Assembly (NCBI GenBank): GCA_045106435.1
Contig: JBGCEN010000057.1
Span: 1-55,253 of the forward strand
Length of the DNA: 55,253 nt
Origin: Rhodothermales bacterium
GTDB taxonomy: Bacteria; Bacteroidota; Rhodothermia; Rhodothermales; JAHQVL01
Direction of reading: 5' to 3'
Shown here one piece after another: positions 1,032 through 55,253 of this stretch (positions are counted from its first letter, which is position 1; the number at the start of each line of letters is the position of its first letter). The translations under genes and the position numbers were made by a program. The notes under the pieces are model-generated. The model worked only from the letters and a program-made list of their open reading frames with translations, made no database searches and was not told the DNA's origin.

Positions 1032-1154
1032 AAAAGTTACCTACACAGAAAGTTAGTTAAACCTAGTGGCGAGCAAGGCGTTAGATGCGGCCGGCTCGGG
1101 AAATTTGAGTACTACTTCTTCTATTAACTGGAAGACAAATTAAGAATAGCAGCC

Positions 1155-1787
1155 ATGGGCAGCGGATTAATCGGTAAAAAAGTTGGCATGACCAGCATCT
1201 TCGACGAGGTGGGTAATAACATACCTTGCACCGTCGTTGAGGTGGAGCCCAACATTGTAACCCAGGTAAAATCATCTGAAGGTGCAGATGGTTACAATGC
1301 CGTACAATTGAGCTACGGCGAAAAGAAAGAGAAGCGAACTTCGAAGGCTATGAAAGGCCACTTCGAAAAAGCCGGCACAACACCAAAGAAAAAGGTCGTT
1401 GAGTTTCGGGATTTCGAAGCAGAAGAAGTTACCCTGGGTGAAGCCAAGAATATTGCGGATGTATTTGAAGAAGGGGATTTTGTAGATGTGGCCGGTATAT
1501 CCAAAGGTAAAGGTTTTCAGGGCGTAGTTAAGCGTCACGGATTTGCTGGAGTTGGTATGGCCACGCATGGTCAGCATAACCGCCAGCGTGCTCCGGGCTC
1601 TATTGGTCAGTCTTCTTCTCCATCCCGCGTATTTAAGGGATTGAGAATGGGTGGGCAAATGGGCAATGAGCGTGTAACGGCCCAGAATCTGGAAGTAATC
1701 AAGATTTACCCTGAGCACAATGTAATATTGGTAAAGGGTGCTGTACCAGGGCCTCGCAACGGCTTTGTAGAAATTCAGAAAGCATAA
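1155..1787 (+). CDS. rplC: 50S ribosomal protein L3
   Basis: [10 protein letters not shown]...[13 protein letters not shown]...RAPGSIG motifs. Confidence 0.99.
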
Positions 1788-1853
1788 TTGCGTAACAGCC
1801 TGAAGAAATTTGTTCTGACGGTATCAGCGAATAGAAAAGAGCATTTATAGATC

Positions 1854-2498
1854 ATGAAACTCAAGGTCTTACAGCGCGACGGGAGTGAAGCAGGGCGTAC
1901 GGTTACGCTTGACAAAACTGTATTTGGTATTGAGCCCAATAACCATACGGTTTGGCTTGATGTTAAGCGTGTGCAAGCAGGCGGACGTCAAGGTACTCAT
2001 AAAGCAAAGGAGCGCGCCGAAATAGCCGGTAGTATGAAGAAACTGTACCGACAAAAAGGTACAGGACATGCAAGGGCGGGGACTGCGAAGTCTCCGTTGC
2101 GTAGAGGAGGTGGTACCGTGTTTGGTCCTCGTCCCCGTGATTATAGCATCAAGATTAACAAGAAAACCCGGGCACTTGCTCGTCGGTCAGTACTGTCTCT
2201 GAAAGCAAAAGGAGATGCTATTCGCGTCGTTGAAGACTTTACTTTTGAAGCCCCGGACACAAAAGGGATTCGTCAGTTGATTGCTTCATTCGAGGCTGGG
2301 AATTCAAGCGTACTGTTGTTGACAACTGCACATGATGCAAATGTTTACAAATCAGGCCGTAATGTACCCAAGTTTAAAGTACTGGAAGCTACGCAGGCTT
2401 CAACTCTTGATATAATTAATGCCAAGACCTTGTTGATTCAGGAAGGCGCAGTGAAGTCACTAAGCGCGTTGTTAGGTTCAAAGAAGTCAGGCAAATAA
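1854..2498 (+). CDS. rplD: 50S ribosomal protein L4
   Basis: RQGTHKAKER...KLYRQKGTGHARAG...GGGTVFGP motifs. Confidence 0.99.
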   Translation: MKLKVLQRDGSEAGRTVTLDKTVFGIEPNNHTVWLDVKRVQAGGRQGTHKAKERAEIAGSMKKLYRQKGTGHARAGTAKSPLRRGGGTVFGPRPRDYSIKINKKTRALARRSVLSLKAKGDAIRVVEDFTFEAPDTKGIRQLIASFEAGNSSVLLLTTAHDANVYKSGRNVPKFKVLEATQASTLDIINAKTLLIQEGAVKSLSALLGSKKSGK

Positions 2499-2549
2499 TA
2501 AATTAGAACATTCATTGACGCCGCTTGGTGTTCGTGAAAGTGTAAGGCC

Positions 2550-2849
2550 ATGGAAAAAGGAATTTTAGTAAGGCCATTTGTTACCGAAAAGATGTCTCGC
2601 CTCATGGAGAGCGGGCACTATGCTTTTGTGGTTGACAAAAACGCAAACAAGGTTGAGATCCGTAAGGAAATCGAAAAGCGTTATCCTGGCGTAAAGGTCA
2701 AGGAAGTGCGCACCCTGATTGTGCGTGGCAAGCGTCGCCGGCAGACCAGCAAGCGAGGCGTTGTTGAGGGCCGCAAAGCAGCCTACAAGCGGGCTATCAT
2801 AACATTGATGCCTGATAGTGAACAGATAGATTTCTTCGAAAACGTGTAA
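2550..2849 (+). CDS. rplW: 50S ribosomal protein L23
   Basis: P(F)VTEK, ANKVEI, YKRAIITL motifs; operon position. Confidence 0.97.
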   Translation: MEKGILVRPFVTEKMSRLMESGHYAFVVDKNANKVEIRKEIEKRYPGVKVKEVRTLIVRGKRRRQTSKRGVVEGRKAAYKRAIITLMPDSEQIDFFENV

Positions 2850-2919
2850 AATTGGCTGACAGAAATAATCGTTTTTTAGGTTAAAAGCGAGAAGAGAGAG
2901 TCAGTTAGATAAGAGAGCA

Positions 2920-3747
2920 ATGGCAATCCGACAGTTAAAACCGGTTACACCCGCGCAGCGACATCGATCTATTTCGACGTTTGACGAAATTACGAAGTCA
3001 ACGCCCGAAAAAAGCTTGCTTGCACCGCTGAGGAAAAAGGCAGGGCGTAACAATACCGGACGGATCATGGTGCGCCACCAGGGTGGTGGGCACAAAAGAC
3101 GCTACCGTATCATTGATTTCAAGCGTAACAAGTTTGATATCCCGGCGAAAGTAGCAAGTATAGAATACGACCCGAATCGTTCTGCCCGCATTGCACTTTT
3201 GGTGTATGCTGATGGGGAGAAACGGTACATTATCGCCCCTAACGAAGTTAAAGTTGGATCGGTTGTACTGAACGGGCCTGATGCGCCGCCTGAAGCAGGC
3301 AATTGCATGCCTTTATCCAAGATTCCTGTAGGTACGTTTGTACATGCGATCGAGATGAAGCCAGGCAAAGGTGCACAGTTGGCCAGATCGGCTGGTACCT
3401 ATGCTCAGCTAACAGCTCGGGAAGGAAAATACGCGACGCTTCGGTTGCCGTCTGGTGAAACTCGAATGGTGCCTAGCCGCTGTATGGCGACAATCGGTAC
3501 TACGAGCAACCCGGATCATGCAAATGTTGATCACGGAAAGGCCGGCCGTAAACGCTGGTTGGGTGTTCGACCGAAGACGCGTGGTGTTGCGATGAACCCC
3601 GTCGATCATCCAATGGGTGGTGGTGAAGGTAAATCTTCTGGTGGTCATCCACGCTCTCCTACTGGAGTACCTGCGAAAGGGTATAAAACCAGGAAGAAGC
3701 GTAAAGCATCGAACAAGTTAATTGTCCGGAGACGGGGCAAAAAATAA
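2920..3747 (+). CDS. rplB: 50S ribosomal protein L2
   Basis: [33 protein letters not shown] motifs. Confidence 0.99.
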
Positions 3748-3806
3748 TCAAGTGATTTGGTCTGGGGCGAGGTATTCGTTCCGGGCTGATAAAGCGAATA
3801 ATTTTA

Positions 3807-4088
3807 ATGGCACGATCACTTAAAAAAGGACCTTTTGTTCATTTCAAGCTCCAGCGTAAGGTGGATAAGCAGAACGAAGGCGGAAAAAAGAAAGTCATTA
3901 AGACATGGAGCCGCGCATCCATGATCTCGCCTGACTTTGTAGGACACACATTTGCCGTACATAACGGTAAACAGTTTATACCTGTGTATATCACAGAAAA
4001 TATGGTAGGGCATCGCCTAGGCGAGTTTTCTCCTACCAGAACATTCCGTGGTCACGCTGGCGATAGAAAAGATAAGCGCGGTCGTTAG
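3807..4088 (+). CDS. rpsS: 30S ribosomal protein S19
   Basis: [28 protein letters not shown] motifs. Confidence 0.99.
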
Positions 4089-4146
4089 AGTCATTACGTC
4101 GAAGGATGCCCTTTGGGCTGTGACACCGTCTAGAATACGAACGGTC

Positions 4147-4506
4147 ATGAAAGCTAAAGCTGTAAGAAAATACATAAGGAGTTCGCCACGGAAGATTCGG
4201 CCAGTGGTCAATGTAATCCGTGGACAGCGGGTACCTGATGCGATCAATTCGCTCAACTTCCTCCCGCAGAAAGTTACGGATACAGTACGCCGCACAATTT
4301 TATCCGCTGTACATAACCTGATGGATCAAAATCAGGATGAAAGGTTGGATGAAGACCAGCTCATCGTACGTGAAGTGCGAGTTGATGAGGGGCCGCACTT
4401 TAAGCGATTCCGCCCAGCTCCGCGTGGCCGAGCTCAACCTATTCTGAAGCGGACAAGTCACCTTACGGTTGTCGTTGGGACGCCGGGTGACGACGAAGAA
4501 GAGTAG
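4147..4506 (+). CDS. rplV: 50S ribosomal protein L22
   Basis: Start at ATG 4147 (MKAKAVRKYIRSSPRK); VDEGP..KRFRP.PRGRA..ILKRTSHLTV. Confidence 0.97.
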   Translation: MKAKAVRKYIRSSPRKIRPVVNVIRGQRVPDAINSLNFLPQKVTDTVRRTILSAVHNLMDQNQDERLDEDQLIVREVRVDEGPHFKRFRPAPRGRAQPILKRTSHLTVVVGTPGDDEEE

Positions 4507-4563
4507 TAGAAGAAGAAAACATTAGCGCTTACCTAAGACCATAATATAAGAAAGGTTTTTACA

Positions 4564-5340
4564 GTGGGTCAGAAAACACATCCTGTAGGATTTAGACTTG
4601 GCATTATTAGAGGTTGGGATTCCAACTGGTATGCTGAGAAAGATTTCGCAGAAAAACTCGTTGAAGACGAAGAAATTCGGAAATACCTGTCTGCTCGTTT
4701 GAAGAGAGCAGGGTTAAGCCGTGTAGTTATCGAGCGTACACCAAAGCGTGTGATTCTGACGCTTCATACCAGCCGGCCGGGTGTTGTTATCGGTCGCGGT
4801 GGTGCTGAGGTCGAAAAGCTACGTGAAGAACTTAAAAAGCTCACAAGCAAAGACATTCAGATCAATATCAACGAGATTAAACGTCCTGAGTTGGATGCAA
4901 GCCTCGTTGCTCAGAATATTGCGCAACAGCTTGAGGGACGTGTTTCGTTCCGTCGTGCGATGAAGCAGGCCATCACGGCTGCCATGCGCATGGGAGCTGA
5001 AGGTATCCGTATCAAAGTAGGTGGCCGTCTTGGCGGTGCTGAAATGGGACGTACGGAGCAGTATTTGGAGGGTCGTGTGCCACTCCACACTGTACGTGCT
5101 GATATTGATTATTCAGAAATGAGAGCCTATACCATCTACGGAACCATTGGCGTTAAAGTCTGGATCTTCCGCGGTGAGGTGATCGGTAAGCCTGATTTGA
5201 GTCCTAATGTCCAGGCGCAGCGTCAGCAGGCGCAGCAGATGCCACCAGAGCGTCGTCGTCGTGGCAAAAGGAATGATAACAGGAATAGCAACAGCAATCG
5301 TCGCGGTGGCAACAGGCAAGGCGGCGGAAACAAGAGCTAG
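4564..5340 (+). CDS. rpsC: 30S ribosomal protein S3
   Basis: GTG start, [26 protein letters not shown]; R/N/G-rich C-terminal tail. Confidence 0.99.
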
Positions 5341-5384
5341 TTTTTAATTTTGATCATTGATCTAGGGATAGAGAGGGTGTCATC

Positions 5385-5813
5385 ATGTTAATGCCCAAAA
5401 GAACGAAGTACCGGCGCGTCCAAAAAGGGCGTATCAAAGGAAACGCTACGCGTGGTACTCGTATTAATTTTGGCGATTTCGGAATCAAGGCTTTAGAGCC
5501 TGGCAGACTAACAAGTCGTCAGATTGAAGCAGCCCGTATTGCCATGACGCGTCAGATGAAAAGGGCTGGGCGTGTATGGATCAGGATTTTTCCAGACAAA
5601 TCCATAACGAAAAAGGCTGCTGAAACTCGTATGGGTAAAGGTAAAGGCTCCCCTGAGTATTGGGTAGCTGTTATTCGCCCGGGACGTGTCCTTTTTGAGA
5701 TTGGAGGAAATGTATCCCCTGAATTGGCGAAAGAAGCCTTGCGCCTGGCGCAGCAGAAACTGCCGATTAAAACGAAATTTGTAATGCGCCCCGATTACGT
5801 GGACGCGGAATAA
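5385..5813 (+). CDS. rplP: 50S ribosomal protein L16
   Basis: [23 protein letters not shown] motifs. Confidence 0.99.
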
Positions 5814-5841
5814 AATACAGTACATGCTGACCGCATAAGTC

Positions 5842-6045
5842 ATGAAAGCAAAAGAAATACGTGAGTTAAGCCTTAATGAGATTCAACAGCGAATTGCTGA
5901 TGAAAAGGAAAGTTTGCAGCATCTGAATTTTCAGCATGCCATTGCAGATATCCAGAATCCAATGCAGCTAAAGCATTCTCGCCGGCTTGTTGCCAGACTC
6001 CAGACAATTTTGACGGAGAAGAAGGCAAACGGAGAAGAAGTTTAG
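5842..6045 (+). CDS. rpmC: 50S ribosomal protein L29
   Basis: MKAKEIREL...NPMQL..RR.VARLQTIL; operon position. Confidence 0.96.
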   Translation: MKAKEIRELSLNEIQQRIADEKESLQHLNFQHAIADIQNPMQLKHSRRLVARLQTILTEKKANGEEV

Positions 6046-6122
6046 AACTCACCGGTAACTGAAGAATTTTTTAAACAAGGTAGTTGGTGGGGTTTCGGCT
6101 CACCAAGCCCGATCATGAGAAT

Positions 6123-6383
6123 ATGGAAACACAAAGAAGTCGTAGAAAAGAACGTATTGGACTTGTTGTAAGCGATAAAATGGACAAATCCATTTCAATT
6201 GCAATCCAGCGTCAGGTAAAGCACCCTATCTACGGGAAGTTTATCAAGAAGACCACCAAGCTCATGGTACACGACGAGCAGAATGATGCAAACACGGGTG
6301 ATACCGTGCGCGTCCAGGAAACGCGTCCTTTGAGCAAGAATAAGCGCTGGCGCCTTGTTGAAGTACTAGAGCGAGCCAAGTAA
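6123..6383 (+). CDS. rpsQ: 30S ribosomal protein S17
   Basis: ATG at 6123; [28 protein letters not shown]. Confidence 0.98.
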
Positions 6384-6466
6384 TCTACACAGAAACTACA
6401 AATGTTTTGGCCCCATAGGGCACGATCAATCAGGTTGATCACGAGCATTTAACAATAATTACGATC

Positions 6467-6835
6467 ATGATCCAGCAGGAATCGAGACTCGCAGTAGCCG
6501 ACAATAGCGGCGCCAAAGAAGTGTTGTGTATTCGAGTATTGGGTGGCAGCGGCCGGCGATATGCGCGAATCGGAGACAGAATTATCGTTACAGTTAAGTC
6601 AGCTATTCCAGGCGGAAACGTCAAGAAAGGAGAAGTGACGCCGGCGGTGGTTGTTCGTACTAAAAAAGAGTATCGTCGCAAAGATGGTTCTTACATCAGA
6701 TTTGATGAGAACGCTGCGGTATTGCTTAATGCACAAGATGAGCCAAGAGGTACACGTATCTTCGGGCCTGTTGCGCGCGAACTCCGCGAAAAGCAGTTCA
6801 TGAGAATTGTATCTCTAGCCCCGGAAGTACTGTAA
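6467..6835 (+). CDS. rplN: 50S ribosomal protein L14
   Basis: [17 protein letters not shown]...[12 protein letters not shown]...SLAPEVL. Confidence 0.99.
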
Positions 6836-6908
6836 ATACTTGAGTTTTCCGCTGCCTCTTTAAATACGCAGCAACAATATTGAAATTTGAAATTCGAAAC
6901 TGAGCGCC

Positions 6909-7295
6909 ATGCCTCGTACGAAGAATAAACATAAAAAACTCCACGTAAAGAAAGGTGATACGGTCATGTTGACCAAGGCGATCACCGCAACTGAATCTCT
7001 TGCGTCTGACCGCGCAAAGGGATATGTGGGCAAGGTACTTCGGGTATATCCTGTTAAAGAACGGGTAATCGTTGAGGGTGTAAACCTTCGTATCCGACAT
7101 ACCAAACCAAATCAGACCTACCCGCAGGGTGGCCGGATTCCTCGTGAGATGCCTATTCACATTTCAAATGTGATGCCTGTTGATTCAGACGGCAGCCGGA
7201 CACGTGTAGGTCGTAAGCGAATCGAAGATCCTGAAACAGGTATGGGACGGTGGATTCGCTTTGCCAAGACAACTGGCGAAGAATTGGATCGTTAG
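6909..7295 (+). CDS. rplX: 50S ribosomal protein L24
   Basis: VKKGDTV...GKVLRV...VIVEGVN...EMPIHISNV; carries an insertion in the KOW region. Confidence 0.97.
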   Translation: MPRTKNKHKKLHVKKGDTVMLTKAITATESLASDRAKGYVGKVLRVYPVKERVIVEGVNLRIRHTKPNQTYPQGGRIPREMPIHISNVMPVDSDGSRTRVGRKRIEDPETGMGRWIRFAKTTGEELDR

Positions 7296-7356
7296 GCTGT
7301 ACGCAAACGATCATTATAACTGATAATAGATACATACGTTAATATCGGGAAGAGCA

Positions 7357-7929
7357 ATGGCTTACACTGTACGGTTGAAGGAGAAGTATCATGGCGAGAT
7401 CGTTGCCGAGCTGAAAAAACAGTTCGAGTATTCGAATGTCATGCAGGTACCTAGGCTCCTGAAAATCAGTGTTAATAAAGGCGTAGGCGAAGCCTCGCAA
7501 AACAAAAAGCTTCTTGACGATGCTATTCAAGAGCTTCGTGCGATTACAGGTCAACATCCTGTGTCGGCTAAAGCCAAGAAAAGTGTGTCGAACTTTAAGT
7601 TGCGTGAAGGTATGCCAATCGGTGTACACGTAACGCTTCGTGGCGATCAGATGTATGAGTTTTTTGATCGTCTCGTAACGCTAGCGCTACCACGTGTTCG
7701 TGACTTTCGCGGCGTTCCAGACAAGAGCTTTGATGGTAGGGGGAATTATACGCTTGGTGTAAAAGAGCAGATTATTTTCCCTGAGATCAACGTGGACAAA
7801 ATAGATCGCATCAGTGGACTCGATATATCTTTTGTTACATCGGCGAACACAGATGAGGAAGGACATGCCTTGCTAAAAGCGCTGGGTATGCCATTCGTTC
7901 GCAGAGAAACAGAGGCTGTAGAAGCTTAA
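7357..7929 (+). CDS. rplE: 50S ribosomal protein L5
   Basis: [29 protein letters not shown] motifs. Confidence 0.99.
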
Positions 7930-7962
7930 GAATATATAGCGGAAGCTAGACCAAGAAAAAAG

Positions 7963-8232
7963 ATGGCAAAGAAAAGCTGGATTGCACGAGAGCGTAAGCG
8001 TCGGAAAGCGGTAGAAAAGTATGCACATATTCGTGCACGCTTAAAAGCGGAGGGAGACTTTGAAGGACTTCAAAGACTGCCCAGGAACGCTAGCCCTGTT
8101 CGCTTGAAAAATCGTTGTGCCCTTACAGGACGTTCACGAGCTTATATGAGGAAATTTGGAGTTTCCCGTATTGTATTTCGTGAAATGGCGTTGGCAGGGA
8201 AAATTCCGGGAATTAGAAAAGCAAGCTGGTAA
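7963..8232 (+). CDS. rpsN: 30S ribosomal protein S14 (89-aa, zinc-independent type)
   Basis: MAKKS...LPRNASP.RLKNRC.LTGR...[11 protein letters not shown]. Confidence 0.98.
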
Positions 8233-8309
8233 TTTAGCTGGCCAGAAGATTCTTGGTCAATTGCTGGATACAGAAAGCCGTGAGATGAATCGGCTAAATT
8301 TCAAATATT

Positions 8310-8711
8310 ATGAGTGGAATTACAGATACCGTTGCAGACTACTTGACGCGCATTAGAAATGCACAGAAAGCGCGACATCGTCATGTTGATATTCCTGCAT
8401 CCAAGCTCAAAAGAGCTATGACGCAGATCATGGTCGAAAAAGGATATGTTAAAAGATTTATCGATATCGACGACAGTAAGCAGGGTCTGATTCGTATTTA
8501 CCTGAAATATGATCAAGCCGGCAAGCCAGTCATTCATGAGCTAAAGCGTGTTTCCCGTCCAGGATTGCGGAGATATGTTGGCGCAAATGACTTGCCACGT
8601 GTGAAAAATGGCCTTGGTGTTGCGATTCTTTCTACCTCACAAGGATTAATGACGGACAAAGAAGCCCGCATTGTGAAGGTAGGAGGAGAAGTACTGGCTT
8701 ACGTCTATTAG
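8310..8711 (+). CDS. rpsH: 30S ribosomal protein S8
   Basis: DYLTRIRNA, SRPGLRRY, STSQGLMTDKEAR..VGGEVL. Confidence 0.99.
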   Translation: MSGITDTVADYLTRIRNAQKARHRHVDIPASKLKRAMTQIMVEKGYVKRFIDIDDSKQGLIRIYLKYDQAGKPVIHELKRVSRPGLRRYVGANDLPRVKNGLGVAILSTSQGLMTDKEARIVKVGGEVLAYVY

Positions 8712-8810
8712 ATTGTTTTTCCTTCTACCAGGCAATTACACTGCTTGAGCAATTTGATTGCCTGTTTAAGACAGGAAACTGAGAACTGAAAACCAAAACT
8801 GAGATTAAAT

Positions 8811-9365
8811 ATGTCTCGTATCGGCAAGTTGCCAATCGAACTTAGTGGGGATGTTACCATAAACGTTGCCACTAACAATTTGGTAACCGTGAAAGGACCC
8901 AAAGGCGAGCTTTATTTGCAGGTAGATCCAGATATGGAAGTATCGCAAGAAGATAAGCTGCTATCGGTCAAGCGCCCTACAGACCAGAAAAGACACCGCG
9001 CGATGCATGGATTGTATCGCTCACTGATCAATAACATGGTTACGGGTGTTACTAAAGGGTATAAGGTTGAGCTTGAAGTGATTGGTGTGGGTTACCGCGC
9101 ATCCATGGCTAACGGCGTATTGGAATTGGGTTTAGGATTCTCCCATCCTATCTACTTCCTGCCACCAAAGGGTATCGATATTACTGTAGATACCAAGCGG
9201 GGCAAAAACGCGATCGTAGTCATTGAAGGCATTGACAACCAATTGGTTGGTCAGGTTGCCGCCAAGATTAGAAAGCTGAGACCGCCCGAACCTTACAAAG
9301 GCAAAGGTGTTCGCTATGTCGGTGAGTACGTTCGCCGTAAAGCTGGTAAAACAGCTGCTCGCTAG
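8811..9365 (+). CDS. rplF: 50S ribosomal protein L6
   Basis: MSRIGKLPI, RPPEPYKGKGVRY, RRKAGK. Confidence 0.99.
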   Translation: MSRIGKLPIELSGDVTINVATNNLVTVKGPKGELYLQVDPDMEVSQEDKLLSVKRPTDQKRHRAMHGLYRSLINNMVTGVTKGYKVELEVIGVGYRASMANGVLELGLGFSHPIYFLPPKGIDITVDTKRGKNAIVVIEGIDNQLVGQVAAKIRKLRPPEPYKGKGVRYVGEYVRRKAGKTAAR

Positions 9366-9434
9366 TCGGGTTAACTAATAACATGATCAACCGCACCAAA
9401 GGGTTGGAAATCTTTTGGTCCATAGGTTAAAAAC

Positions 9435-9788
9435 ATGGCTAAAAATAGAAAGGCGTTAAGTCGCAAGCGCATCAAGCGCCGGATTCGCAAAAGAATCAAC
9501 GGAACTCCAGAAAGTCCAAGACTTTCAGTATTTCGCTCATCGCAGCATATTTATGCGCAATTGATCGATGATCTTTCCGGCCATACCCTGGCTGCTGCAT
9601 CTTCTTTGGAAGACGTTAAAATGAAAGGATCAAGCGTTGAGAAAAGCGTAGAGGTTGGCAAGAAGTTGGCCGAGAGAGCCAAAGCTGCCGGCATCGAAAG
9701 CGCAGTATTTGACCGGAATGGATTTCGGTATCACGGTCGCGTTAAAGCTTTGGCAGAAGGCGCGCGTGAAGGAGGAATTAGCTTCTAA
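9435..9788 (+). CDS. rplR: 50S ribosomal protein L18
   Basis: [33 protein letters not shown]. Confidence 0.99.
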
Positions 9789-9853
9789 GAGAAGCTTTTA
9801 AGTTATAGATCGACAAGAATCGATCAACTAAATAGCTGTAAACAGATAAGATA

Positions 9854-10384
9854 ATGGCTAAAGGTAGAAACCGTCGCACCCGTGAAAAGGCAAGTGCACC
9901 ACAGAAAGAATGGATCGAGAAACTCGTATCCGTAAATCGTGTAGCGAAGGTTGTAAAAGGTGGTCGCCGCTTTTCCTTCAACGCAGTAGTAGTCGTTGGG
10001 GATGGCAATGGTGTTGTTGGTGCAGGTCTTGGTAAGGCCAATGAAGTTGCCAGTGCAATTGCTAAAGGGACAGAAGACGCTAAGAAGAACGTCATTTCTG
10101 TACCGCTCCGCGGAGGTACCATACCTCATCCGATCATTGGTCGGAAGGATGCTGGACGTGTTTTGCTTAAGCCGGCTTCTCATGGTACTGGTGTTATTGC
10201 AGGTGGCGGCGTTCGTGCTGTACTAGAGTGTGCCGGGGTTTCAGATATCCTGTCAAAATCTCTTGGTTCCAGTAACCCGCATAACCAAGTTGCTGCCACA
10301 ATCAATGGGCTTGCTTCATTGCAGGATCCCATGGAAGTTGCAAAACGTCGTGGTATACCATTGAAAAAGGTATTCGAGGGTTAA
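9854..10384 (+). CDS. rpsE: 30S ribosomal protein S5
   Basis: [29 protein letters not shown]. Confidence 0.99.
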
Positions 10385-10437
10385 TCCGAACAGGCTGAAA
10401 AATTATCTGCCTTAGATACCATACGAGCAGAATTATA

Positions 10438-10620
10438 ATGGGAAATTTGAAAATTACACAAACACGCAGTCTAATCCGGAAGTCGAAAAAGCAAAAGCTT
10501 ACGATGGAAGCTTTGGGATTTAGACGGATAAATCAAACCGTTGAGCATAACGACACTCCACAGCTTCGTGGGATGTTGGAAAAAGTGCACCATTTAGTAA
10601 AGATAGAAGAAACGAACTGA
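10438..10620 (+). CDS. rpmD: 50S ribosomal protein L30
   Basis: LKITQTRSLI...ALG...DTPQLRGM..KVHHLV. Confidence 0.97.
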   Translation: MGNLKITQTRSLIRKSKKQKLTMEALGFRRINQTVEHNDTPQLRGMLEKVHHLVKIEETN

Positions 10621-10621
10621 C

Positions 10622-11098
10622 ATGGATCTCAGCAATCTTAAACCTGCGAAAGGAGCCACAAAATCACGTAAGCGTATTGCGCGTGGTGTTGGTTCTGGAT
10701 ATGGTGGACATAGCTCGACTAGGGGTGATAAAGGTCAAAAGAGCCGTTCTGGATCAAGTATCCCGATCTGGTTTGAAGGTGGTCAGATGCCATTACAGCG
10801 TCGGATTCCAAAATTTGGCTTTACAAACCGTTTTCGCGTTAGCTATCGTGGCGTAAATCTGTCAAGTTTGGCAGAACTCATCGAGTCTGGCCGCATTGAT
10901 GCATCAAAGCCGATTACTCCAGAAGTAATGGTGGGTGTAGGTGTTGCCCGGAAGAATGATCTGGTTAAAGTATTGGGTGATGGTGAAGCAGGAGCAGCAC
11001 TCCAGGTTTCAGCGCACGCTTTCAGTGCTTCAGCTCGGACAAAAATAGAAAGTGCAGGTGGATCTGCAACTGTAGTTAATAAGATTGCAGCTGCTTAA
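10622..11098 (+). CDS. rplO: 50S ribosomal protein L15
   Basis: KGQKSRSG, FEGGQMPLQRRIPKFGF. Confidence 0.99.
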   Translation: MDLSNLKPAKGATKSRKRIARGVGSGYGGHSSTRGDKGQKSRSGSSIPIWFEGGQMPLQRRIPKFGFTNRFRVSYRGVNLSSLAELIESGRIDASKPITPEVMVGVGVARKNDLVKVLGDGEAGAALQVSAHAFSASARTKIESAGGSATVVNKIAAA

Positions 11099-11122
11099 AA
11101 GAGCTGATTAAAAGGATAAGTT

Positions 11123-12439
11123 ATGGCTGGTTTTGCCGAAAGTATTCGGAATATATGGAAGGTCGAGGAACTGCGTCAGCGGATTCTGTACACATTGGGC
11201 CTTCTCATAGTTTATCGTATTGGCGCTCAGGTAACCCTCCCTGGCATCGACGCCAATGTGTTGGCTACAGTGAATTCGCAAACTGATTCGAATAACCTTC
11301 TGGGTTTTCTCGACATGTTTGTTGGAGGAGCTTTTAGCCAGGCAGGTATTTTTGCCTTGGGCATTATGCCTTATATCACCGCTTCGATTATTATTCAGCT
11401 ATTGGGGGCGGTTAATCCGTACTTCCAAAAGCTACAGCGCGAAGGGGAAGAAGGCAGGCGAAAAATTACCCAGTTAACGCGATATGGTACAGTGGTGATT
11501 ACGCTCATCCAGTCCACTGGTTATGCGATAAACCTGCTTGCGGGTGCAACGGGGTCCGCCATTGTCATTGCCTCCACTTTCTTTATGTTTACGACCGTTA
11601 TTACGCTTACGGCTGGGACGGTGTTTGTGATGTGGCTTGGTGAGCGAATAACCGAGAGTGGTATTGGTAACGGTATATCACTGATCATTATGATTGGTAT
11701 TATTGCCTTCTTGCCAACATCTATATTTAATGAGTTTAATCTCTCTGCCAACTTCTTCATCTTCCTTGCGGAGATTGCGGTACTGCTGGGGGTTATTGCT
11801 TTCATTATCCTTGTTTCGCAAGGGACACGTCGAATCCCTGTGCAATACGCCAAGCGCGTAGTAGGTCGCAAGGTGTACGGAGGCACAACACAGTATTTGC
11901 CAATTCGTGTGAATGCTGCAGGTGTGATGCCGATCATCTTTGCCCAGTCTATTATGTTTGTGCCGGCAACGATTGCACAGTTCTTCCCTGATAGCGATGG
12001 TATGCAACAATTTGGCGCATGGTTTAGCGATATATCAGGATGGGGATACTCAATTGTATTCTTTGTCATCTGTGTATTCTTTACCTACTTCTATACAGCT
12101 ATCGCGGTTAACCCCAAGGAGATGGCTGATACGATGAAGCGTCAGGGTGGCTTTATCCCGGGTATTCGCCCAGGTAAGCAGACAAGCGAATTTGTAGATA
12201 ACATTCTCACAAGAATTACATTACCTGGTTCTGTATTTCTTGGTCTTGTGGCTATTCTTCCTGCATTTGCAATGCAGGCAGGCGTTACGGCAGGCTTTGC
12301 AATGTTCTACGGTGGAACGAGTTTGATTATTCTCGTGCAGGTTACCCTGGATACGCTGCAACAGGTTGAGAGTCACTTATTAATGCGCCACTACGACGGC
12401 TTTATGAAGAGCGGTCGTGTAAAAGGCCGGCGCGTTTAA
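11123..12439 (+). CDS. secY: Preprotein translocase subunit SecY
   Basis: IFALGIMPYITASII, WLGERITESGIGNGISL, FIPGIRPG; about 10 TM segments. Confidence 0.99.
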   Translation: MAGFAESIRNIWKVEELRQRILYTLGLLIVYRIGAQVTLPGIDANVLATVNSQTDSNNLLGFLDMFVGGAFSQAGIFALGIMPYITASIIIQLLGAVNPYFQKLQREGEEGRRKITQLTRYGTVVITLIQSTGYAINLLAGATGSAIVIASTFFMFTTVITLTAGTVFVMWLGERITESGIGNGISLIIMIGIIAFLPTSIFNEFNLSANFFIFLAEIAVLLGVIAFIILVSQGTRRIPVQYAKRVVGRKVYGGTTQYLPIRVNAAGVMPIIFAQSIMFVPATIAQFFPDSDGMQQFGAWFSDISGWGYSIVFFVICVFFTYFYTAIAVNPKEMADTMKRQGGFIPGIRPGKQTSEFVDNILTRITLPGSVFLGLVAILPAFAMQAGVTAGFAMFYGGTSLIILVQVTLDTLQQVESHLLMRHYDGFMKSGRVKGRRV

Positions 12440-12473
12440 CAAAGGCTTAAAGTATTTTAAATCTTTACTTGGC

Positions 12474-13286
12474 ATGATCCACTTAAAAAACCTGCAAGAA
12501 GTAGAAAAGCTTAGGGAGAGCGCCGACTTGGTGAGTCGAACTCTTGCTGAAGTAGCAGGGCATATCAAGCCAGGTGTAAAGACGATAACGCTGGACGAGA
12601 TTGCTGAGAAGTATATTCTTGGCCACAATGCGAAGCCGGCGTTTAAAGGGTATAAAGTTGGTCGGGCTGTGTTTCCCAGTACACTTTGCATATCCATCAA
12701 TGATGAGGTAGTGCATGGTATTCCCGGAGAACACACGCTCAAAGAAGGTGATCTTGTTTCGGTCGATTGTGGTGTCCTGCTAAATGGATATTACGGAGAC
12801 ACTGCCTACACATTTGCTGTAGGGGAGATTTCACCAGAAGATGCCCAGCTTTGCCGGGTAACGTACGAATCTCTCATGAAAGGGATTGACAAAGCGCGTG
12901 TTGGATTCAGGATTGGTGATATCTCCAATGCCGTGCAGTCGCACTGTGAGTCGTATGGCTATGGTGTTGTAAGGGATCTGGTTGGACATGGAATTGGCAA
13001 GAGCCTCCATGAAGCACCACAAGTGCCCAATTTTGGACGACAGGGGAGTGGGCGGAAATTAAAAGATGGGACCTCTATGTGCATTGAGCCAATGATCAAT
13101 GCCGGCACATTCGAAGTGTTTACTGCAGATGATGAATGGACCATCAAGACAGCGGACAATAGCCAGTCTGCGCATTACGAATTAACGATTGTTGTGCGCA
13201 AAGGTGAACCTGAAATGCTCAGCACCTTCTCTCATATAGAGAAGATAATAGATGCGCCTTATAAGCTTGCATTAACTGATGGTTAA
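12474..13286 (+). CDS. map: Type I methionine aminopeptidase
   Basis: CISINDEVVHGIP, DCGV..NGYYGD, GHGIG..LHE.P, IEPMIN, SAHYE. Confidence 0.98.
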   Translation: MIHLKNLQEVEKLRESADLVSRTLAEVAGHIKPGVKTITLDEIAEKYILGHNAKPAFKGYKVGRAVFPSTLCISINDEVVHGIPGEHTLKEGDLVSVDCGVLLNGYYGDTAYTFAVGEISPEDAQLCRVTYESLMKGIDKARVGFRIGDISNAVQSHCESYGYGVVRDLVGHGIGKSLHEAPQVPNFGRQGSGRKLKDGTSMCIEPMINAGTFEVFTADDEWTIKTADNSQSAHYELTIVVRKGEPEMLSTFSHIEKIIDAPYKLALTDG

Positions 13287-13570: not shown

Positions 13571-13601
13571 GCGCCGCCTAGTGTATAGTTGACAGAGAAT
13601 T

Positions 13602-13982: not shown

Positions 13983-14014
13983 TATTTTCTGCCAAGTTTG
14001 TAGGAACTGAGATA

Positions 14015-44884: not shown

Positions 44885-46093
44885 ATGAAGAAGCAACTAT
44901 GTCTTTTATGCAGTGTGCTCTTTGCAGGGTTACTGCTGCTAGGCGCAGGATGCGGAGGAGATCCTAACGTAGAAGGTGCAAAATTGGCTCTTACGCTGGA
45001 TGATGTTGATTATAATGATTACATCGCTAAACTTGACCAAAGTATTGCAGCAGATCCCACAAATGCAGAGGCATTCACGGTCAAAGGGAAACTCCTCCAG
45101 AAACAGGCTAGCGAAATCCGGGATGCTGATCAGCATATTTCCCTGATTGAAAAAATGGTTGAAGCCTATCAAGGTGCTTTGAACATCGAGCCTGAAAATG
45201 CTGAAGTAATTCAGAAGCTCAGAGAAGCTTATGTAAATGAGTTTCAGCTTGGTATCCAGGCCTTTAACCGTGGTCGGGAAGACGAATCAGCTTATGACGA
45301 AGCTGTGAAGTTTTTCGGCAGTACTTCAACCGTACAGCCTGACTCTGCTGGTCCTTACGTTAATCAGGCGTATGCGCTGATTAATGCCGGCCGGCAAGAA
45401 GATGCCATCATGCCATTTGAAATGGCTATTGAACGTGGCGAAAAAGATGCAGATACATTCCTGCTGCTCTCAAACATCTACCAGACACAAAGTGAGCTTG
45501 CCAAAGCGATTGCGTTACTGGAGAGCTCTCGTGAGATGTTTCCAGAGCGTGAAGACTTACAGTCTGCATTGCTGAATGCCTACATCTCTGATGGCCAGAT
45601 GGATCGTGCAATGAATGACTATTCAGCTGCAGTTGAACGCGAGCCAGATAACAAGCTGTATCGCTACAACTTCGGTACGCTGTTACTTGAAGCAGAGAAA
45701 TATGATGAATCTGCTGAGCAGTTTGCCGCAGCCATTGGTATTGATCCTGAATATGGCGTAGCTCACTACAACTTGGGCGCTTCATACGTTAACAAGGCGG
45801 TTGAAATCAACGAAGAGATCACAATGATTGACGATGATCTTCGGGCAAATCGCTCTAGCTATTCTGCTGCACAAATCAAGGATGCCGAAAACAAACTTGA
45901 TATGTTGACAGAAGAACGGAAAGGATTTTTTGTCAAAGCGGTTACCCCGCTTGAAGATGCGCGTAGACTCTTCGAGTCAAACGGAGAAGATGCATCTGCA
46001 GTTTGTACTGCATTATTCCAGTCCTATGTTCAGACTGGAGATGACACAAAAGCTGAAAGTGCTGCTGCCTGTGCTGGTATCGACCTAAATTAG
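44885..46093 (+). CDS. TPR-repeat lipoprotein
   Basis: Lipobox GAG-C; TPR units (AIGIDPEYGVAHYNLG, REPDNKLYRYNFG). Confidence 0.88.
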   Translation: MKKQLCLLCSVLFAGLLLLGAGCGGDPNVEGAKLALTLDDVDYNDYIAKLDQSIAADPTNAEAFTVKGKLLQKQASEIRDADQHISLIEKMVEAYQGALNIEPENAEVIQKLREAYVNEFQLGIQAFNRGREDESAYDEAVKFFGSTSTVQPDSAGPYVNQAYALINAGRQEDAIMPFEMAIERGEKDADTFLLLSNIYQTQSELAKAIALLESSREMFPEREDLQSALLNAYISDGQMDRAMNDYSAAVEREPDNKLYRYNFGTLLLEAEKYDESAEQFAAAIGIDPEYGVAHYNLGASYVNKAVEINEEITMIDDDLRANRSSYSAAQIKDAENKLDMLTEERKGFFVKAVTPLEDARRLFESNGEDASAVCTALFQSYVQTGDDTKAESAAACAGIDLN

Positions 46094-47657: not shown

Positions 47658-47658
47658 G

Positions 47659-52121: not shown

Positions 52122-52545
52122 AAGACTTTCGTGATCTACCTACAAGCAACGCGCAAAAAGAAACGGGAGCGTGCTTGTCTTATCGAGAAATACCTAAACG
52201 TACTCCTAAAGAGAGGATACTGAACTTCTGGTGGAGGTCAGTATGACGTACTATCAAAGATGATGCTGTATCGCGTCAGGGGTAACCAGCCTTCATTAGA
52301 CTTTGGATAGTACAACTGGTTCGGATTGAGCACAAGGCTCTATATGCTATTAGCATAAACTTTGCGCAATCTTTAATGTAGAAGGGTATAACGATTTAGC
52401 GTTACAATGATCCTTGTTTTTAAAAAAATGGTAGCGCTTCCAAGGCGTGGATTTTACTTCTTGAATACGGCCTGTTGAATTCCAAATTCCTGTCCTGTGA
52501 CCCTGAGCTTGGCCCTGAATTGTACAAACTGATTGGCGATCCAGC

Positions 52546-54048
52546 CTAGTCCGTTTCCTCCTGAATCTCGTCTTCCGCAAGAGGTAAGTCAAACCAAAAT
52601 CTCGTCCCTCTACCCAGTGTGCTCTCCACCTGAATCTGTTCTCCGTGTGCGTGGAGGATCTGTTTGACGATACTCAGGCCCAGGCCTGTACCGCCGCTTT
52701 TGCGGGATCTATCCGGATCAACGCGATAAAAGCGTTCAAAGATGCGTTCCAGGTTTTCTTCTGGAATGCCCCTGCCTGTATCGGAGACTTCAATACGTAC
52801 CTTATCTTGCCGGCGCCTGTATTTGAATTTTACTCCGCCTTCGTCTGTATAAACAATCGCGTTTTCTATTAGATTTACCAGAACTTGACGGATGCGATCA
52901 CGATCAGCATGGGCCTTTATTTTTACGTGCTCGATTTCAAGTTGTAAATCCTTCTTGGCTGCCTTTTGCTGGAGCAGCTCTTCCAGTTCCAGAGATAGCT
53001 CGGACAGATCAAAGTCGTCGAGCCGAATCATGTCTTCCCGATATTCAAGCCTTGCTATCTCGATCAAGTCGTTAAACAGATTGCTTAATCTCTCGAGATT
53101 TACCAGTGCTTTTTCTGCATAGCGTTTTTGTTGCTCAGGCTTGAGTACTGGTGTTGCGAGTGCTTCTAAATATCCGCTAATTGCAAAAATCGGGTTGCGT
53201 ACCTCGTGGGATACGTTGCCTATAAACTCGCTTTGAAGGTTTGATAGCCGCTCCAGGTTCTCAATCTTTTTCCGAAACTGGCCGGACATTCGATTAAGGC
53301 TGGTTGCCAGGTCCTGAAACTCAGCCGCTCGGGACCTCACAAAAATCTTCTGATTAGACTTCTCGTCAGAAATTTTGCGTGCCCTTTCATTAATGGCTCT
53401 GAGAGGCTTGATAACTCTTCTCGCAGTTACCCAACTGCCAAACATGGCAAGAATAAAAGCCATCACCATACCAACTATAAGTGCCGTTTGCATATTCCTC
53501 GCCTGGGAATATAACGGGGGCTCGGGGACGTATAGGCGGATGACAAACCCTGTGAGTGCGTGATTTACAGCACATATCAGGATTGGGTCACCGTTTGTGG
53601 TGGTATGTTCTATGAAGCGCATCCTGCCCTCCGGTACCAGAAGATCCTGTTCAAGATCTTCTGGTAGATAGAATTGAGGGATGAAGGTTTCGCCTCTGGC
53701 GTCTACGTATAGGGTATCGTCTGCATACGCTTCAATGCGCATGCCCAGCACACGACTGGTTTGTTCAGTGGCTTGCCAGGCTTCTTCGTAAGATCGAGCC
53801 TTGCCAAGCGTGGTAGCAATCTGTAGCGCTTGTTCACGGAGCTGTCGTCTTGCAGCAGTTTCGGTTTGATTATGGAGTACGAAACGCGCGTATAGACCAA
53901 CAACAAGTACAGCACCTCCTACAAAAAACGCGAACGTTAGAAACATCCAGGTTTGTGTAGAAGCTCTTTTAGGGACAATAGTGCTTGCAACTTCCCTGAA
54001 AAGGAGCCTCAGCCAGAGGAGCAGGCGTCGTACTCGTCTCCAGCCCAT
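52546..54048 (-). CDS. PhoR-like HAMP sensor histidine kinase
   Basis: 2 TM, HAMP, H-box VSHEVRNP, NLIENA, DTGRGI, FERFYRVD..RSR..GGTGLGLSIVK. Confidence 0.95.
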   Translation of the reverse strand: MGWRRVRRLLLWLRLLFREVASTIVPKRASTQTWMFLTFAFFVGGAVLVVGLYARFVLHNQTETAARRQLREQALQIATTLGKARSYEEAWQATEQTSRVLGMRIEAYADDTLYVDARGETFIPQFYLPEDLEQDLLVPEGRMRFIEHTTTNGDPILICAVNHALTGFVIRLYVPEPPLYSQARNMQTALIVGMVMAFILAMFGSWVTARRVIKPLRAINERARKISDEKSNQKIFVRSRAAEFQDLATSLNRMSGQFRKKIENLERLSNLQSEFIGNVSHEVRNPIFAISGYLEALATPVLKPEQQKRYAEKALVNLERLSNLFNDLIEIARLEYREDMIRLDDFDLSELSLELEELLQQKAAKKDLQLEIEHVKIKAHADRDRIRQVLVNLIENAIVYTDEGGVKFKYRRRQDKVRIEVSDTGRGIPEENLERIFERFYRVDPDRSRKSGGTGLGLSIVKQILHAHGEQIQVESTLGRGTRFWFDLPLAEDEIQEETD

Positions 54049-54756
54049 CTATTCCTCTGGCAAGCCGTCTTCTACAAACCGGTATCCTACACCGCGGACC
54101 GTCTGGATATGCTGGGCGAAGCTGCCTAGCTTTTCTCTGAGGTTTTTGATGTGGGCATCTACCGTTCGTTCGGTGACCATCATGGCATCTTTCCAGATCG
54201 TTTCCAGCAATTGCTGTCTGGTGAATGCTTTTCGAGGATGCCGTACGAGATATCGCAGGAGCTCAAATTCGGTGAGGGTAAGTCCGAGATCTTTTTCATC
54301 CAGCGCAGCCCGGTACTCATCTTCATAGATGGTCAGGTTGTTAATCTGGATGATACGGCTCTCATCTACACCCATGCGCCGTAGAACGGCTTTAACATGC
54401 GCGAGAATGACCTGGGGAGATGCCGGCTTTGTCAGATAGTCATCACCACCCAGCATAAGACCTTTGATCTGGTCTTCTTCCTCTACTTTAGCGCTCAGAA
54501 AGATGATGGGAATCGTTTCTGTTTCTGCGCGAGATCTTAATGTTTTGCAAACCTCGTAGCCATCCAGGCCAGGCAACATAATATCTAATACAAGAAGATC
54601 GATCTCAGAGGTGGCTTTTTGTAACGCTTCTTCTCCGTCAAAAGCTTTGTGAACTGTATATCCTTCCTGCTCCAGGAAATGGCTAACAACTTCAACTACA
54701 TCTTCTTCGTCATCAACAACGAGGATATTTATTTCAGAGGGGTCAGCAGTAATCAT
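54049..54756 (-). CDS. PhoB/PhoP-like OmpR-family response regulator
   Basis: LVVDDE, LDIMLPG.DG, GGDDYLTKP, LTLTEFELL, RTVDAHIKNLR.K, TVRGVGY; abuts the kinase gene. Confidence 0.96.
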   Translation of the reverse strand: MITADPSEINILVVDDEEDVVEVVSHFLEQEGYTVHKAFDGEEALQKATSEIDLLVLDIMLPGLDGYEVCKTLRSRAETETIPIIFLSAKVEEEDQIKGLMLGGDDYLTKPASPQVILAHVKAVLRRMGVDESRIIQINNLTIYEDEYRAALDEKDLGLTLTEFELLRYLVRHPRKAFTRQQLLETIWKDAMMVTERTVDAHIKNLREKLGSFAQHIQTVRGVGYRFVEDGLPEE

Positions 54757-55253
54757 GCTTGGCTTATGGTTGTTTCAAAACAATTGTGGCTAAATAAAGC
54801 GTTTTCGAAGCAAGCAACACGCAAACAGCGTAAGATGCCTCGAATATTCTTCATCCTATGCCAAAGAATCTACGAAAAACGCGTAGATATACCTATGGAT
54901 CCGTATGAGTAAATTATTCTGAACGCAATTCAGTTGCAAAAAGCCGTTTTTATCTTCATAAACGCGCTTTGTGAGATAAATTTCTACACAAATTGCTATG
55001 CATATACGCCGGCTTTTCTCCCTGCGCCAATCAATATACGTGATAAGTCACTTTTTCGGCTACCAAGGTTACCTGCTGTGCAAGCCCTCGCGTCATTAAG
55101 TCTTTCGTGATTTGTAAGAACCTGTCTACGATCTATGGCCGAGATTGCATTTGCAGCAATTTTTGTTCAAATCAAGGCGCTTTTTGTGTTCGATGCAGCG
55201 CATCGGGCGCAAAAAGGAACGCAGATATGGGCAAAAAGGGCGCACAATGCACC

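Follow-up and report, generated by a model that had tools for sequence, protein, structure and literature searches.

Family-wide excess of the palindromic hexamer GCCGGC in a lineage of Rhodothermales

GCCGGC sites in the window and across the genome

The window, the whole stretch of 55,253 bp (46.1% guanine plus cytosine, GC) analyzed here, is one entire contig (C57) of a Rhodothermales metagenome-assembled genome (MAG), designated G000, of 7.19 Mb in 570 contigs with 93.67% completeness. It carries a ribosomal-protein/SecY/RpoA operon and, dispersed along its length, the hexamer GCCGGC, which the initial annotation of the window had likened to HIP1, the highly iterated palindrome (HIP) of cyanobacteria. 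A pattern search located exactly 89 GCCGGC sites, the first at 1090 and the last at 55008-55013, in agreement with the count of about 89 made by eye; because the word is palindromic, every site is identical on both strands. The zero-order expectation was 8.1 sites, so that the roughly tenfold excess over about 8 expected sites claimed at the outset was borne out in the window, and the genome-wide figure was 11.5-fold. In dinucleotide-preserving shuffles of the window (n = 100), the mean was 10.96 (standard deviation 2.96, maximum 18) and 0/100 reached 89. Markov models of first to fourth order predicted 11.0, 13.7, 28.2, and 64.0 sites, respectively. The runner-up among palindromic hexamers was TTCGAA with 32 copies, and the remaining GC-only palindromes were present in 7 to 16 copies (CGGCCG 16, GCGCGC 10, and GGCGCC 9).

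In open reading frames (ORFs) of at least 120 amino acids (aa), the sites of the window were distributed over codon phases 0, 1, and 2 as 37, 24, and 20, with 8 sites outside such ORFs. The examples first given for the three phases (1371, 2737, and 6640) and for non-coding DNA (1090, 29979, and 55008) were all as described, and the latter three lie outside any convincing ORF (Table 1). Site density was 1.01/kb up to position 16900 (17 sites) and 1.88/kb in the remaining window (72 sites), exactly the partition between the operon, at about 1/kb, and the rest, at about 1.9/kb, that had been reported from visual scanning.

Across the G000 genome, 14,495 GCCGGC sites were counted against 1,258 expected at zero order, an observed-to-expected ratio (O/E) of 11.5 and the highest of all hexamers. 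The O/E fell to 5.9 under a Markov-2, 2.7 under a Markov-3, and 1.40 under a Markov-4 null; the last value is no refutation because that null uses GCCGG and CCGGC, 75% of which lie inside GCCGGC. The probability of C at position 6 given GCCGG was 0.752, compared to 0.265 to 0.310 with A, C, or T at position 1, and the dependency spans all six bases. Other GC-only hexamers were not equally frequent, GGCGCC, CGGCCG, and GCGCGC reaching 1.35 to 1.55-fold, and the hexamers next in O/E (CGCCGG, CCGGCG, and similar), at most 4.5-fold enriched, are overlapping shifts of GCCGGC. In the 497 motif-rich contigs described below, GCCGGC had the highest raw count among the 4,096 hexamers, at an O/E of 12.6, and the runner-up had 5,535 copies.

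Around 14,465 sites, the flanks contained at most 0.027 bits of information at any position, in keeping with the earlier statement that there is no flanking consensus; a slight symmetric preference for C at -1 and G at +1 was the sole trace. The palindromic 6-mer thus stands on its own rather than inside a repeat element. A longer, mainly extragenic consensus of the repetitive extragenic palindrome or miniature inverted-repeat transposable element type was not found, and 12,662 of the 14,495 sites lie within ORFs.

Codon phase was analyzed in 4,707 ORFs with a minimum length of 120 aa, which together make up 77% of the G000 genome. Sites in phases 0, 1, and 2 numbered 7,070, 2,342, and 3,250, compared to 1,632, 279, and 711 in 20 within-gene synonymous-codon shuffles, corresponding to an O/E of 4.8 overall and to 4.3-, 8.4-, and 4.6-fold enrichment per phase relative to shuffles that retain a codon usage inflated by the motif. 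Enrichment was accordingly found in all phases, not in the Ala-Gly phase only, and also in non-coding DNA. The gaps between 468 convergent gene pairs (67.6 kb, 42.9% GC) contained 47 GCCGGC sites versus 6.5 to 7.1 expected, about sevenfold, while seven other GC-only palindromes were present there in 1 to 8 copies each. The GCCGGC excess acts at the DNA level and does not result from codon or amino-acid usage, and the initial view that amino-acid composition hardly explains it was upheld by these two results. The motif has reshaped codon-pair usage, about half of all Ala-Gly pairs being GCC-GGC. An O/E for the dipeptides Ala-Gly and Pro-Ala of 1.17 and 1.22 in two enriched genomes versus 1.04 and 0.94 in G019, the one, unmatched comparator, suggests a slight shift of the proteome towards these pairs.

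Only amino acids not involved in the motif entered the codon-bias proxy by which genes were ranked. In the lowest quintile, 59% of Ala-Gly pairs were encoded as GCC-GGC, and this share decreased monotonically with the proxy, to 22% among the top 1% of genes. In the window, 3/31 Ala-Gly pairs were GCC-GGC in the ribosomal operon versus 31/69 in the other ORFs. Because the share drops with codon bias and in the ribosomal operon, the force acting per site is weak. Site density was even along genes, and in 1-kb bins of a 380-kb block from the congener G001 the sites were spread a little more evenly than Poisson (index of dispersion 0.77). A test of this one block for periods between 5 and 130 kb gave no significant result (permutation P = 0.51), with low power, the contigs of G000 being too short for such a test. 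Spacings of 7 to 14 bp were under-represented, and the overlapping double site GCCGGCCGGC (spacing 4) was present 121 times genome-wide.

Apart from GCCGGC, hexamers containing CTAG were very rare, ACTAGT occurring once in the window and ACTAGG having a genome-wide O/E of 0.16. A CTAG deficit is usual in bacteria.

Table 1. Coordinates of GCCGGC sites and related features in the window
Feature	Position	Strand	Remark
GCCGGC starts, part 1	1090, 1371, 2737, 3541, 4772, 5981, 6552, 6640, 8517, 9687, 10171, 11962, 12426, 12635, 13101		
GCCGGC starts, part 2	14385, 16450, 17916, 18800, 18946, 19335, 20049, 21279, 21576, 21654, 21790, 21976, 22019, 23593, 24236		
GCCGGC starts, part 3	24663, 25083, 26452, 26867, 26903, 27120, 28102, 29164, 29663, 29979, 30893, 30942, 31492, 31726, 32287		
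GCCGGC starts, part 4	32404, 32938, 33149, 33347, 33549, 33768, 34242, 35074, 35447, 36610, 37398, 37518, 37705, 37801, 38760		
GCCGGC starts, part 5	39172, 39484, 40206, 40515, 41650, 42105, 43041, 43441, 45386, 45390, 46412, 46780, 47839, 48004, 48355		
GCCGGC starts, part 6	48748, 48972, 49101, 49314, 50100, 50719, 50766, 51405, 51432, 51873, 51938, 52809, 54422, 55008		
Phase-0 example, GCC-GGC, Ala-Gly	1371..1376	+	Frame 1128-1784, ribosomal-operon ORF
Phase-1 example, xGC-CGG-Cxx	2737..2742	+	Frame 2538-2846, 103 aa
Phase-2 example, xxG-CCG-GCx, Pro-Ala	6640..6645	+	Frame 6419-6832, 138 aa
Non-coding example	29979..29984		Upstream of ATG at 29922, minus-strand ORF 27676-29922
Overlapping double site GCCGGCCGGC	45386..45395		Starts 45386 and 45390
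Ribosomal-protein/SecY/RpoA operon	1155..16847	+	SecY at 11123-12439; 1.01 GCCGGC/kb

Distribution among relatives and in motif-poor DNA

The organism belongs to Rhodothermales by its SecY protein, whose best match, at 89%, is in a Rhodothermaceae MAG, and the assignment to Rhodothermota made from the sequence at first reading was correct. The family is represented in the collection by eight species (G000 to G007). Whole-genome counts were controlled with the reversed word CGGCCG, which is itself avoided in many genomes, and local GC was then sampled; 80 ribosomal-operon loci of relatives were left out of the mapping as too short and constrained, with counts mostly below 20.

The three members of the genus had GCCGGC/CGGCCG ratios of 8.5, 6.8, and 6.7, the other five family species 2.0 to 3.3, and 23 other genomes of the order 0.24 to 5.8. 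Approximate O/E values were 3.6 to 12 in 7/8 family genomes, those with a GC estimate. Five sampled members with 47 to 64% GC had approximate values of 8.3, 6.5, 5.5, 4.1, and 3.6, GCCGGC being the top GC-only hexamer in each of them, and the congener G001 reached 9.3 in the 380-kb block. Mapping, which the initial annotation had proposed for Rhodothermota, gave within the order enrichment in 8/8 family species and an O/E of 0.8 to 1.6 in the five other families sampled for GC (G009, G010, G014, G017, and G028). The GCCGGC excess is a family-wide trait, strongest in this genus.

Two genomes with high ratios, G014 (5.8) and G010 (4.7), were considered as independent enriched lineages and rejected after GC sampling. 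G014, with approximately 70% GC, had an O/E of 1.2 to 1.5 and G010 one of 0.8, the high ratios being due to CGGCCG avoidance; the reversed-word control alone therefore misleads. CGGCCG, an EagI-type site, was extremely rare in several Bacteroidota (G143, G121, G044, and G104 among the examples), with for instance 9, 7, and 23 copies and an approximate O/E of 0.01 to 0.08, which suggests strong restriction avoidance and makes it a poor control word.

The opposite tendency was observed in G019 of the same order (58% GC; loci L127-L143, 229.5 kb sampled), which avoids GCCGGC with an O/E of 0.23. Only 2.9% of its Ala-Gly pairs were GCC-GGC versus 18.8% expected from its codon usage, and it uses more GCC and GGC codons than the enriched genome. 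G019 is informative but, given its 58% GC and the avoided word, no matched non-enriched control, and neither PF00145 nor PF01555, models for cytosine-5 (C5) and N4/N6 DNA methyltransferases (MTases), had a match in it. Low GCCGGC/CGGCCG ratios of 0.24 to 0.44 were also seen in G015, G025, and G024. Within one order, one hexamer is thus under opposite pressures, about 12-fold up in one lineage and about 4-fold down in another.

In the wider phylum, none of 300 further genomes sampled combined about 2 sites/kb with a ratio above 3. Five distant Bacteroidia (G084, G132, G098, G088, and G290) showed a GCCGGC excess with an approximate O/E of 3 to 10; in G084 (L107), with about 9.7-fold excess, the 16 sites in 20 kb were isolated and without a longer consensus. 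These may be independent instances, and the isolated excess in G084 hints at recurrence in the phylum. A C5-MTase was present in 3/5 of these Bacteroidia, similar to 9/14 control genomes and therefore uninformative.

Within the G000 assembly, GCCGGC counts per 5-kb window were bimodal, and the low mode consisted mostly of entire contigs. The motif-rich part comprised 497 contigs (6.53 Mb, 47.3% GC) with 14,352 sites, 2.20/kb, and an O/E of 12.6, and the motif-poor part 73 contigs (661,863 bp, about 9% of the assembly, 47.2% GC; C248, C45, C199, C345, C388, C227, and C499 among them) with 143 sites and an O/E of 1.2. The motif-poor contigs are probably foreign, i.e., mis-binned, mobile, or recently acquired. 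Inside motif-rich contigs, only three site-free gaps of at least 4 kb were found (C172:1407-9239, C340:2093-6098, and C474:2516-6738), encoding accessory-type proteins, namely, Por_Secre_tail/type IX secretion system cargo, FG-GAP, an esterase, a glyoxalase, a Gp49/HigB-like protein, and a hybrid histidine kinase-AraC regulator, and they fit recent acquisition. At the same GC, an O/E of 1.2 versus 12.6 makes GCCGGC a sharp marker for binning and for foreign DNA in this family.

Preference for the intact site and search for a recognizing enzyme

Species were compared using 380 kb of G001, which gave 145 orthologue pairs and 188 kb of ungapped codon alignment with G000. The congeners are approximately 70 to 78% identical in DNA, and third-position identity in the alignment was 0.414. 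Sites of G000 were also GCCGGC at the same place in G001 in 247/519 cases (0.476), compared to a hexamer median of 0.116, making GCCGGC the most conserved of 2,191 hexamers. At 330 conserved Ala-Gly pairs, GCC-GGC was used in 59.7% (G000) and 63.3% (G001), and its presence in one species barely predicted the other (0.660 versus 0.594, odds ratio 1.33, P = 0.24). The baseline odds ratio, for the commonest codon pair of other qualifying conserved dipeptides, had a median of 1.36; the high coincidence of sites is therefore not positional conservation, and none beyond baseline was found at conserved Ala-Gly pairs between G000 and G001. In phases 1 and 2, 58 to 69% of compatible conserved contexts carried GCCGGC, with odds ratios of 6.2 and 2.95 that come from pooled heterogeneous contexts and are not clean. 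GCCGGC therefore fills the available synonymous space independently in each of the two species.

When five bases of the word were kept constant and the sixth was a four-fold site, that sixth was the motif base in 79 to 91% of cases versus a baseline of 18 to 38%; this was so at all six positions, with odds ratios of 8.9 to 23.9. The non-motif bases kept 0.5 to 1.4 of their baseline shares, transition neighbors 0.88 to 1.33; T at position 2 (1.26 to 1.33) and A at position 5 (1.20 to 1.28) were not depleted. Depletion of one-mismatch neighbors, proposed at the outset as a check, was not seen either in total, the 18 neighbors summing to 28,594 versus 24,369 (zero order) or about 29,054 (Markov-1) expected. 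GTCGGC and GCCGAC were mildly low genome-wide (0.63 to 0.68), and their shortage was rejected as an entry gate for repair because the same neighbors were not depleted at synonymous sites. Only the strict word was enriched, GCCGGT and ACCGGC standing at 1.24 and ACCGGT at 0.73. The pattern fits a preference for the intact site, by selection or transmission bias, and not the repair of one specific mismatch.

A closer relative was seen in runs X4, X5, X6, and X17 from four studies, which contain one sister lineage about 3.3% divergent from window positions 30001 to 50000. X17 yielded a 42.6-kb contig with 660 differences over 20 kb, mostly transitions, and three of the four runs showed a 34-base replacement at 47658-47661. 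Among the differences listed (40 of 785), two motif sites were covered.

The initial annotation had proposed an orphan 5-methylcytosine (m5C) MTase coupled to Vsr-type biased repair and had suggested a search for both genes. In the 93.67% complete G000, neither was found: PF00145 (C5-MTase), PF01555 (N4/N6-MTase), PF03852 (Vsr), and PF02976 (MutH) had no match, each of these models having matched in control genomes. The NgoMIV, NaeI, and Bse634I models (PF09015, PF09126, and PF07832) likewise had no match in G000 and matched in none of 14 control genomes. In the family, PF00145 had no match in G000, G001, and G003 to G007 and gave one partial match (1/8), in G002, while Vsr was present in 0/8 genomes and, among 31 relatives, in G008 only, next to a C5-MTase. 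Against Vsr-type repair also stand the undepleted transition neighbors and the six about equally favored positions. PF01555 exceeded the cut-off in 3/8 family genomes (G001, G002, and G007) at non-homologous loci. No MTase was conserved across the family, and C5, N4, and Vsr did not track the trait among relatives. The PF01555 MTase of G002 (G002:C198:5953-7389) lies directly beside the partial PF00145 match, and no counterpart was found in G000 or G001; this locus is probably a restriction-modification island.

Catalytic motifs of amino- and C5-MTases were also scanned with regular expressions in 6,092 stop-to-stop ORFs of at least 150 aa in G000. Seven candidates resulted and were sorted by Pfam, four of them RNA-modifying or unrelated enzymes (oxidoreductase, Dus, RlmL-like, and RsmD-like), one a secreted repeat protein, and one without a family. 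The sole DNA MTase candidate was a 1,011-aa Eco57I/N6_Mtase/MmeI-type protein (type IIG, adenine) at C487:1-3033 (L153), on an 8-kb contig with zero GCCGGC. DUF559, which has a Vsr-like fold and two ORFs in G000, was rejected as the agent because its presence does not track the trait: it was found in 18/31 relatives, including non-enriched genomes and the GCCGGC-avoiding G019, and not in the enriched G001 and G004. ComEC was present in G000 and is near-universal (10/14 control genomes).

Relation to known systems and possible origins of the excess

The HIP1-like description was apt. GCCGGC is a short, GC-rich palindrome that is lineage-specific and has no flank consensus; it is dispersed as single sites in coding DNA of all phases and in non-coding DNA, exceeds expectation 11.5-fold in the genome and 12.6-fold in motif-rich contigs, where a HIP is expected to reach about 10-fold or more, and is enriched in all species of the family (GCCGGC/CGGCCG 2.0 to 8.5). 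It resembles HIP1 (GCGATCGC) in these features and in an excess of an order of magnitude or more, and differs from it in length (6 bp versus 8 bp), in host (Rhodothermales versus cyanobacteria), and in degree (about 12-fold versus a reported 15- to 300-fold). HIP1 is recognized by DmtA and DmtC, whereas no cognate MTase for GCCGGC was found here by PF00145, PF01555, or the motif scan in G000; Elhai (2015) assigns a cognate MTase to alternate HIPs and puts forward mismatch repair that depends on GmeC. Positional conservation and a periodicity of 10 to 90 kb were reported for HIP1 by Xu et al. (2018); for GCCGGC, conservation at conserved Ala-Gly pairs (G000 versus G001) did not exceed baseline, and no 5- to 130-kb period was found as far as one 380-kb block can show. 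The mechanism of HIP1 is debated as biased repair, selection, or an uptake signal (PMC4390886, PMC5861425, and PMC13756078).

The nearest precedent by word is rCCGGy of Oscillatoria PCC 10802, in which, according to Elhai (2015), GCCGGC is one of three over-represented forms together with GCCGGT and ACCGGC, and an m5C MTase, DmtD, is present. G000 differs in being enriched in strict GCCGGC only and in having no C5-MTase that the searches could find. Full-text literature searches, with supplementary files outside their scope, found no description of a GCCGGC-type motif in Rhodothermota or Bacteroidota, as the initial annotation had supposed for Rhodothermota; supplementary tables (Supplemental Table S4 of Elhai and the supplements of Xu et al. 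2018) may list non-cyanobacterial or GCCGGC data.

GCCGGC is also the site of NaeI and NgoMIV, and classical avoidance of this word is seen in G019, the family showing the opposite sign. Very-short-patch repair by Dcm/Vsr shapes CCWGG and CTWGG frequencies in Escherichia coli, with a modest effect. It is alike in being a repair process able to raise the frequency of an MTase site, and it differs in needing Dcm and Vsr, neither of which was found in G000, in predicting a depletion of T-containing neighbors that was not seen at GCCGGC synonymous sites, and in not being a 12-fold effect. The DNA uptake sequence (DUS) of Neisseria and the uptake signal sequence (USS) of Haemophilus are 9 to 12 bp long and not palindromic, and Chi is asymmetric, read as single-stranded DNA and replication-oriented. 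Like GCCGGC, these are dense genome-wide words (about 1 per kb) that are thought to spread by transmission bias and are under-represented in foreign DNA; they are asymmetric words of 5 to 12 bp, in contrast to a symmetric 6-mer without flank information.

The excess is real, acts at the DNA level, is family-wide, concerns the whole site, is absent from foreign DNA, and is unlinked to known cytosine MTases or Vsr. The favored origin, with about even confidence, is a drive: repair or recombination would tend to retain whichever strand or allele carries the site. A weak per-site force would keep the intact hexamer as a unit at steady state, odds of about 9 to 24 per position corresponding to a scaled advantage of about 2 to 3, and would fill roughly half to two thirds of the positions where the protein sequence permits GCCGGC. 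It would act equally on non-coding DNA, yield to translational selection where expression is high, and not yet have acted on recently acquired DNA. The palindromy together with the symmetric flank trace (C at -1 and G at +1) points to a homodimeric protein binding double-stranded DNA as the putative recognizer of the symmetric site. Such a protein would bias which allele survives repair or recombination, either through biased gene conversion or mismatch correction to the site-bearing strand or through preferential retention of site-bearing incoming DNA, and molecular drive of this kind, which has been put forward for both HIP1 and uptake sequences, would make GCCGGC accumulate. Judging from the searches of G000, in which none of them had a match, the recognizer would lie outside the DNA cytosine-MTase, Vsr, MutH, and NaeI/NgoMIV/Bse634I families.

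Several points weigh against such a drive. No recognizing protein was found among the searched families in G000 and its relatives, each family, DUF559 included, being either not found or not tracking the trait; the three restriction-enzyme models, which matched in 0/14 control genomes, are weak negatives, and in a MAG of 570 contigs and 93.67% completeness a gene could be unassembled. Whole-site preference with unchanged ratios of the non-motif bases is predicted both by the drive and by direct weak selection, and synonymous sites are saturated between the species (third-position identity 0.414), so that gains and losses are not polarized. The drive is preferred to selection because individually effective selection on about 14,000 sites seems less plausible.

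Direct weak selection is considered unlikely. In this reading, GCCGGC would be a landmark, as the initial annotation had suggested as an alternative, to which an abundant protein of the nucleoid or of segregation binds, and the fitness gain from any one site would be tiny. A fitness term on the intact site would favor all six positions equally and leave the non-motif ratios unchanged, as observed, the even spread (dispersion index 0.77 in 1-kb bins of 380 kb of G001, and even density along genes) is in its favor, and selection and a nucleoid function have been argued for HIP1 by Xu et al. (2018). However, selection would have to be effective at each of about 14,000 sites, the searches yielded no candidate for the binding protein, and neither positional conservation above baseline at conserved Ala-Gly pairs (1.33 versus 1.36) nor a 5- to 130-kb periodicity in the 380-kb block (P = 0.51) was detected.

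A self mark for incoming or broken DNA, resembling the DUS and USS as an uptake sequence or Chi as a protective site, seems less probable again. An uptake-signal function has been proposed for HIP1, as stated in PMC13756078 and bioRxiv 10.1101/2024.09.10.611283. A density of about 2/kb and absence from putatively foreign DNA match the behavior of uptake sequences, and whole-site preference is compatible with it. A 6-mer discriminates little, however, and GCCGGC is short and palindromic, unlike the DUS and USS of 9 to 12 bp and the asymmetric Chi. The presence of ComEC in G000 agrees with uptake but says little, the protein being near-universal (10/14 control genomes).

A hidden GCCGGC-specific m5C or N4-methylcytosine MTase, acting with Vsr-type or methyl-directed repair that converts near-cognate sites, is judged improbable. 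Each alternate HIP, including GCCGGC in rCCGGy, is tied to a cognate MTase by Elhai (2015), the mild genome-wide shortage of GTCGGC and GCCGAC (0.63 to 0.68) is in its direction, and the enzyme could belong to an unrecognized family. Against it, PF00145, PF01555, and PF03852 had no match in G000, Vsr was found in 0/8 family genomes, PF00145 only as the partial G002 match, and PF01555 in 3/8 at unrelated loci, and the one DNA MTase from the motif scan is of the adenine type (IIG), its contig having no GCCGGC. Moreover, T at position 2 and A at position 5 were not depleted, all six positions and not the cytosines alone were favored, and the enrichment was limited to strict GCCGGC (GCCGGT/ACCGGC 1.24 and ACCGGT 0.73).

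A compositional artefact of codon usage, Ala-Gly content, GC heterogeneity, a longer repeat, or assembly error, to which the drop to 1.40 under Markov-4 and the predominance of phase 0 (7,070/12,662 sites) might point, is refuted by the make-up of that null from pentamers dominated by GCCGGC itself, the codon-shuffle O/E of 4.3 to 8.4 in every phase, the approximately sevenfold excess in convergent-gene gaps, the uninformative flanks, the occurrence of the trait in eight independently assembled genomes of 47 to 64% GC, and G019, which is richer in GCC and GGC codons and has 2.9% of its Ala-Gly pairs as GCC-GGC.

HIPs have so far been an essentially cyanobacterial puzzle, and the GCCGGC family is an independent case in another phylum and with another word. 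Such a case, apparently lacking the MTases, lets the repair, nucleoid, and uptake hypotheses for HIPs be tested against each other. Tentatively, and with less than even confidence, this Rhodothermales family is proposed to keep a HIP without a cytosine MTase of a known family or Vsr, through a new whole-site transmission bias; candidates for such a bias are a novel site-specific DNA-binding or DNA-modifying protein and a palindromic self mark in recombination or uptake. If this is true, the MTase link proposed for cyanobacterial HIPs would not be general, and the family would be an independent second system for the thirty-year-old HIP problem.

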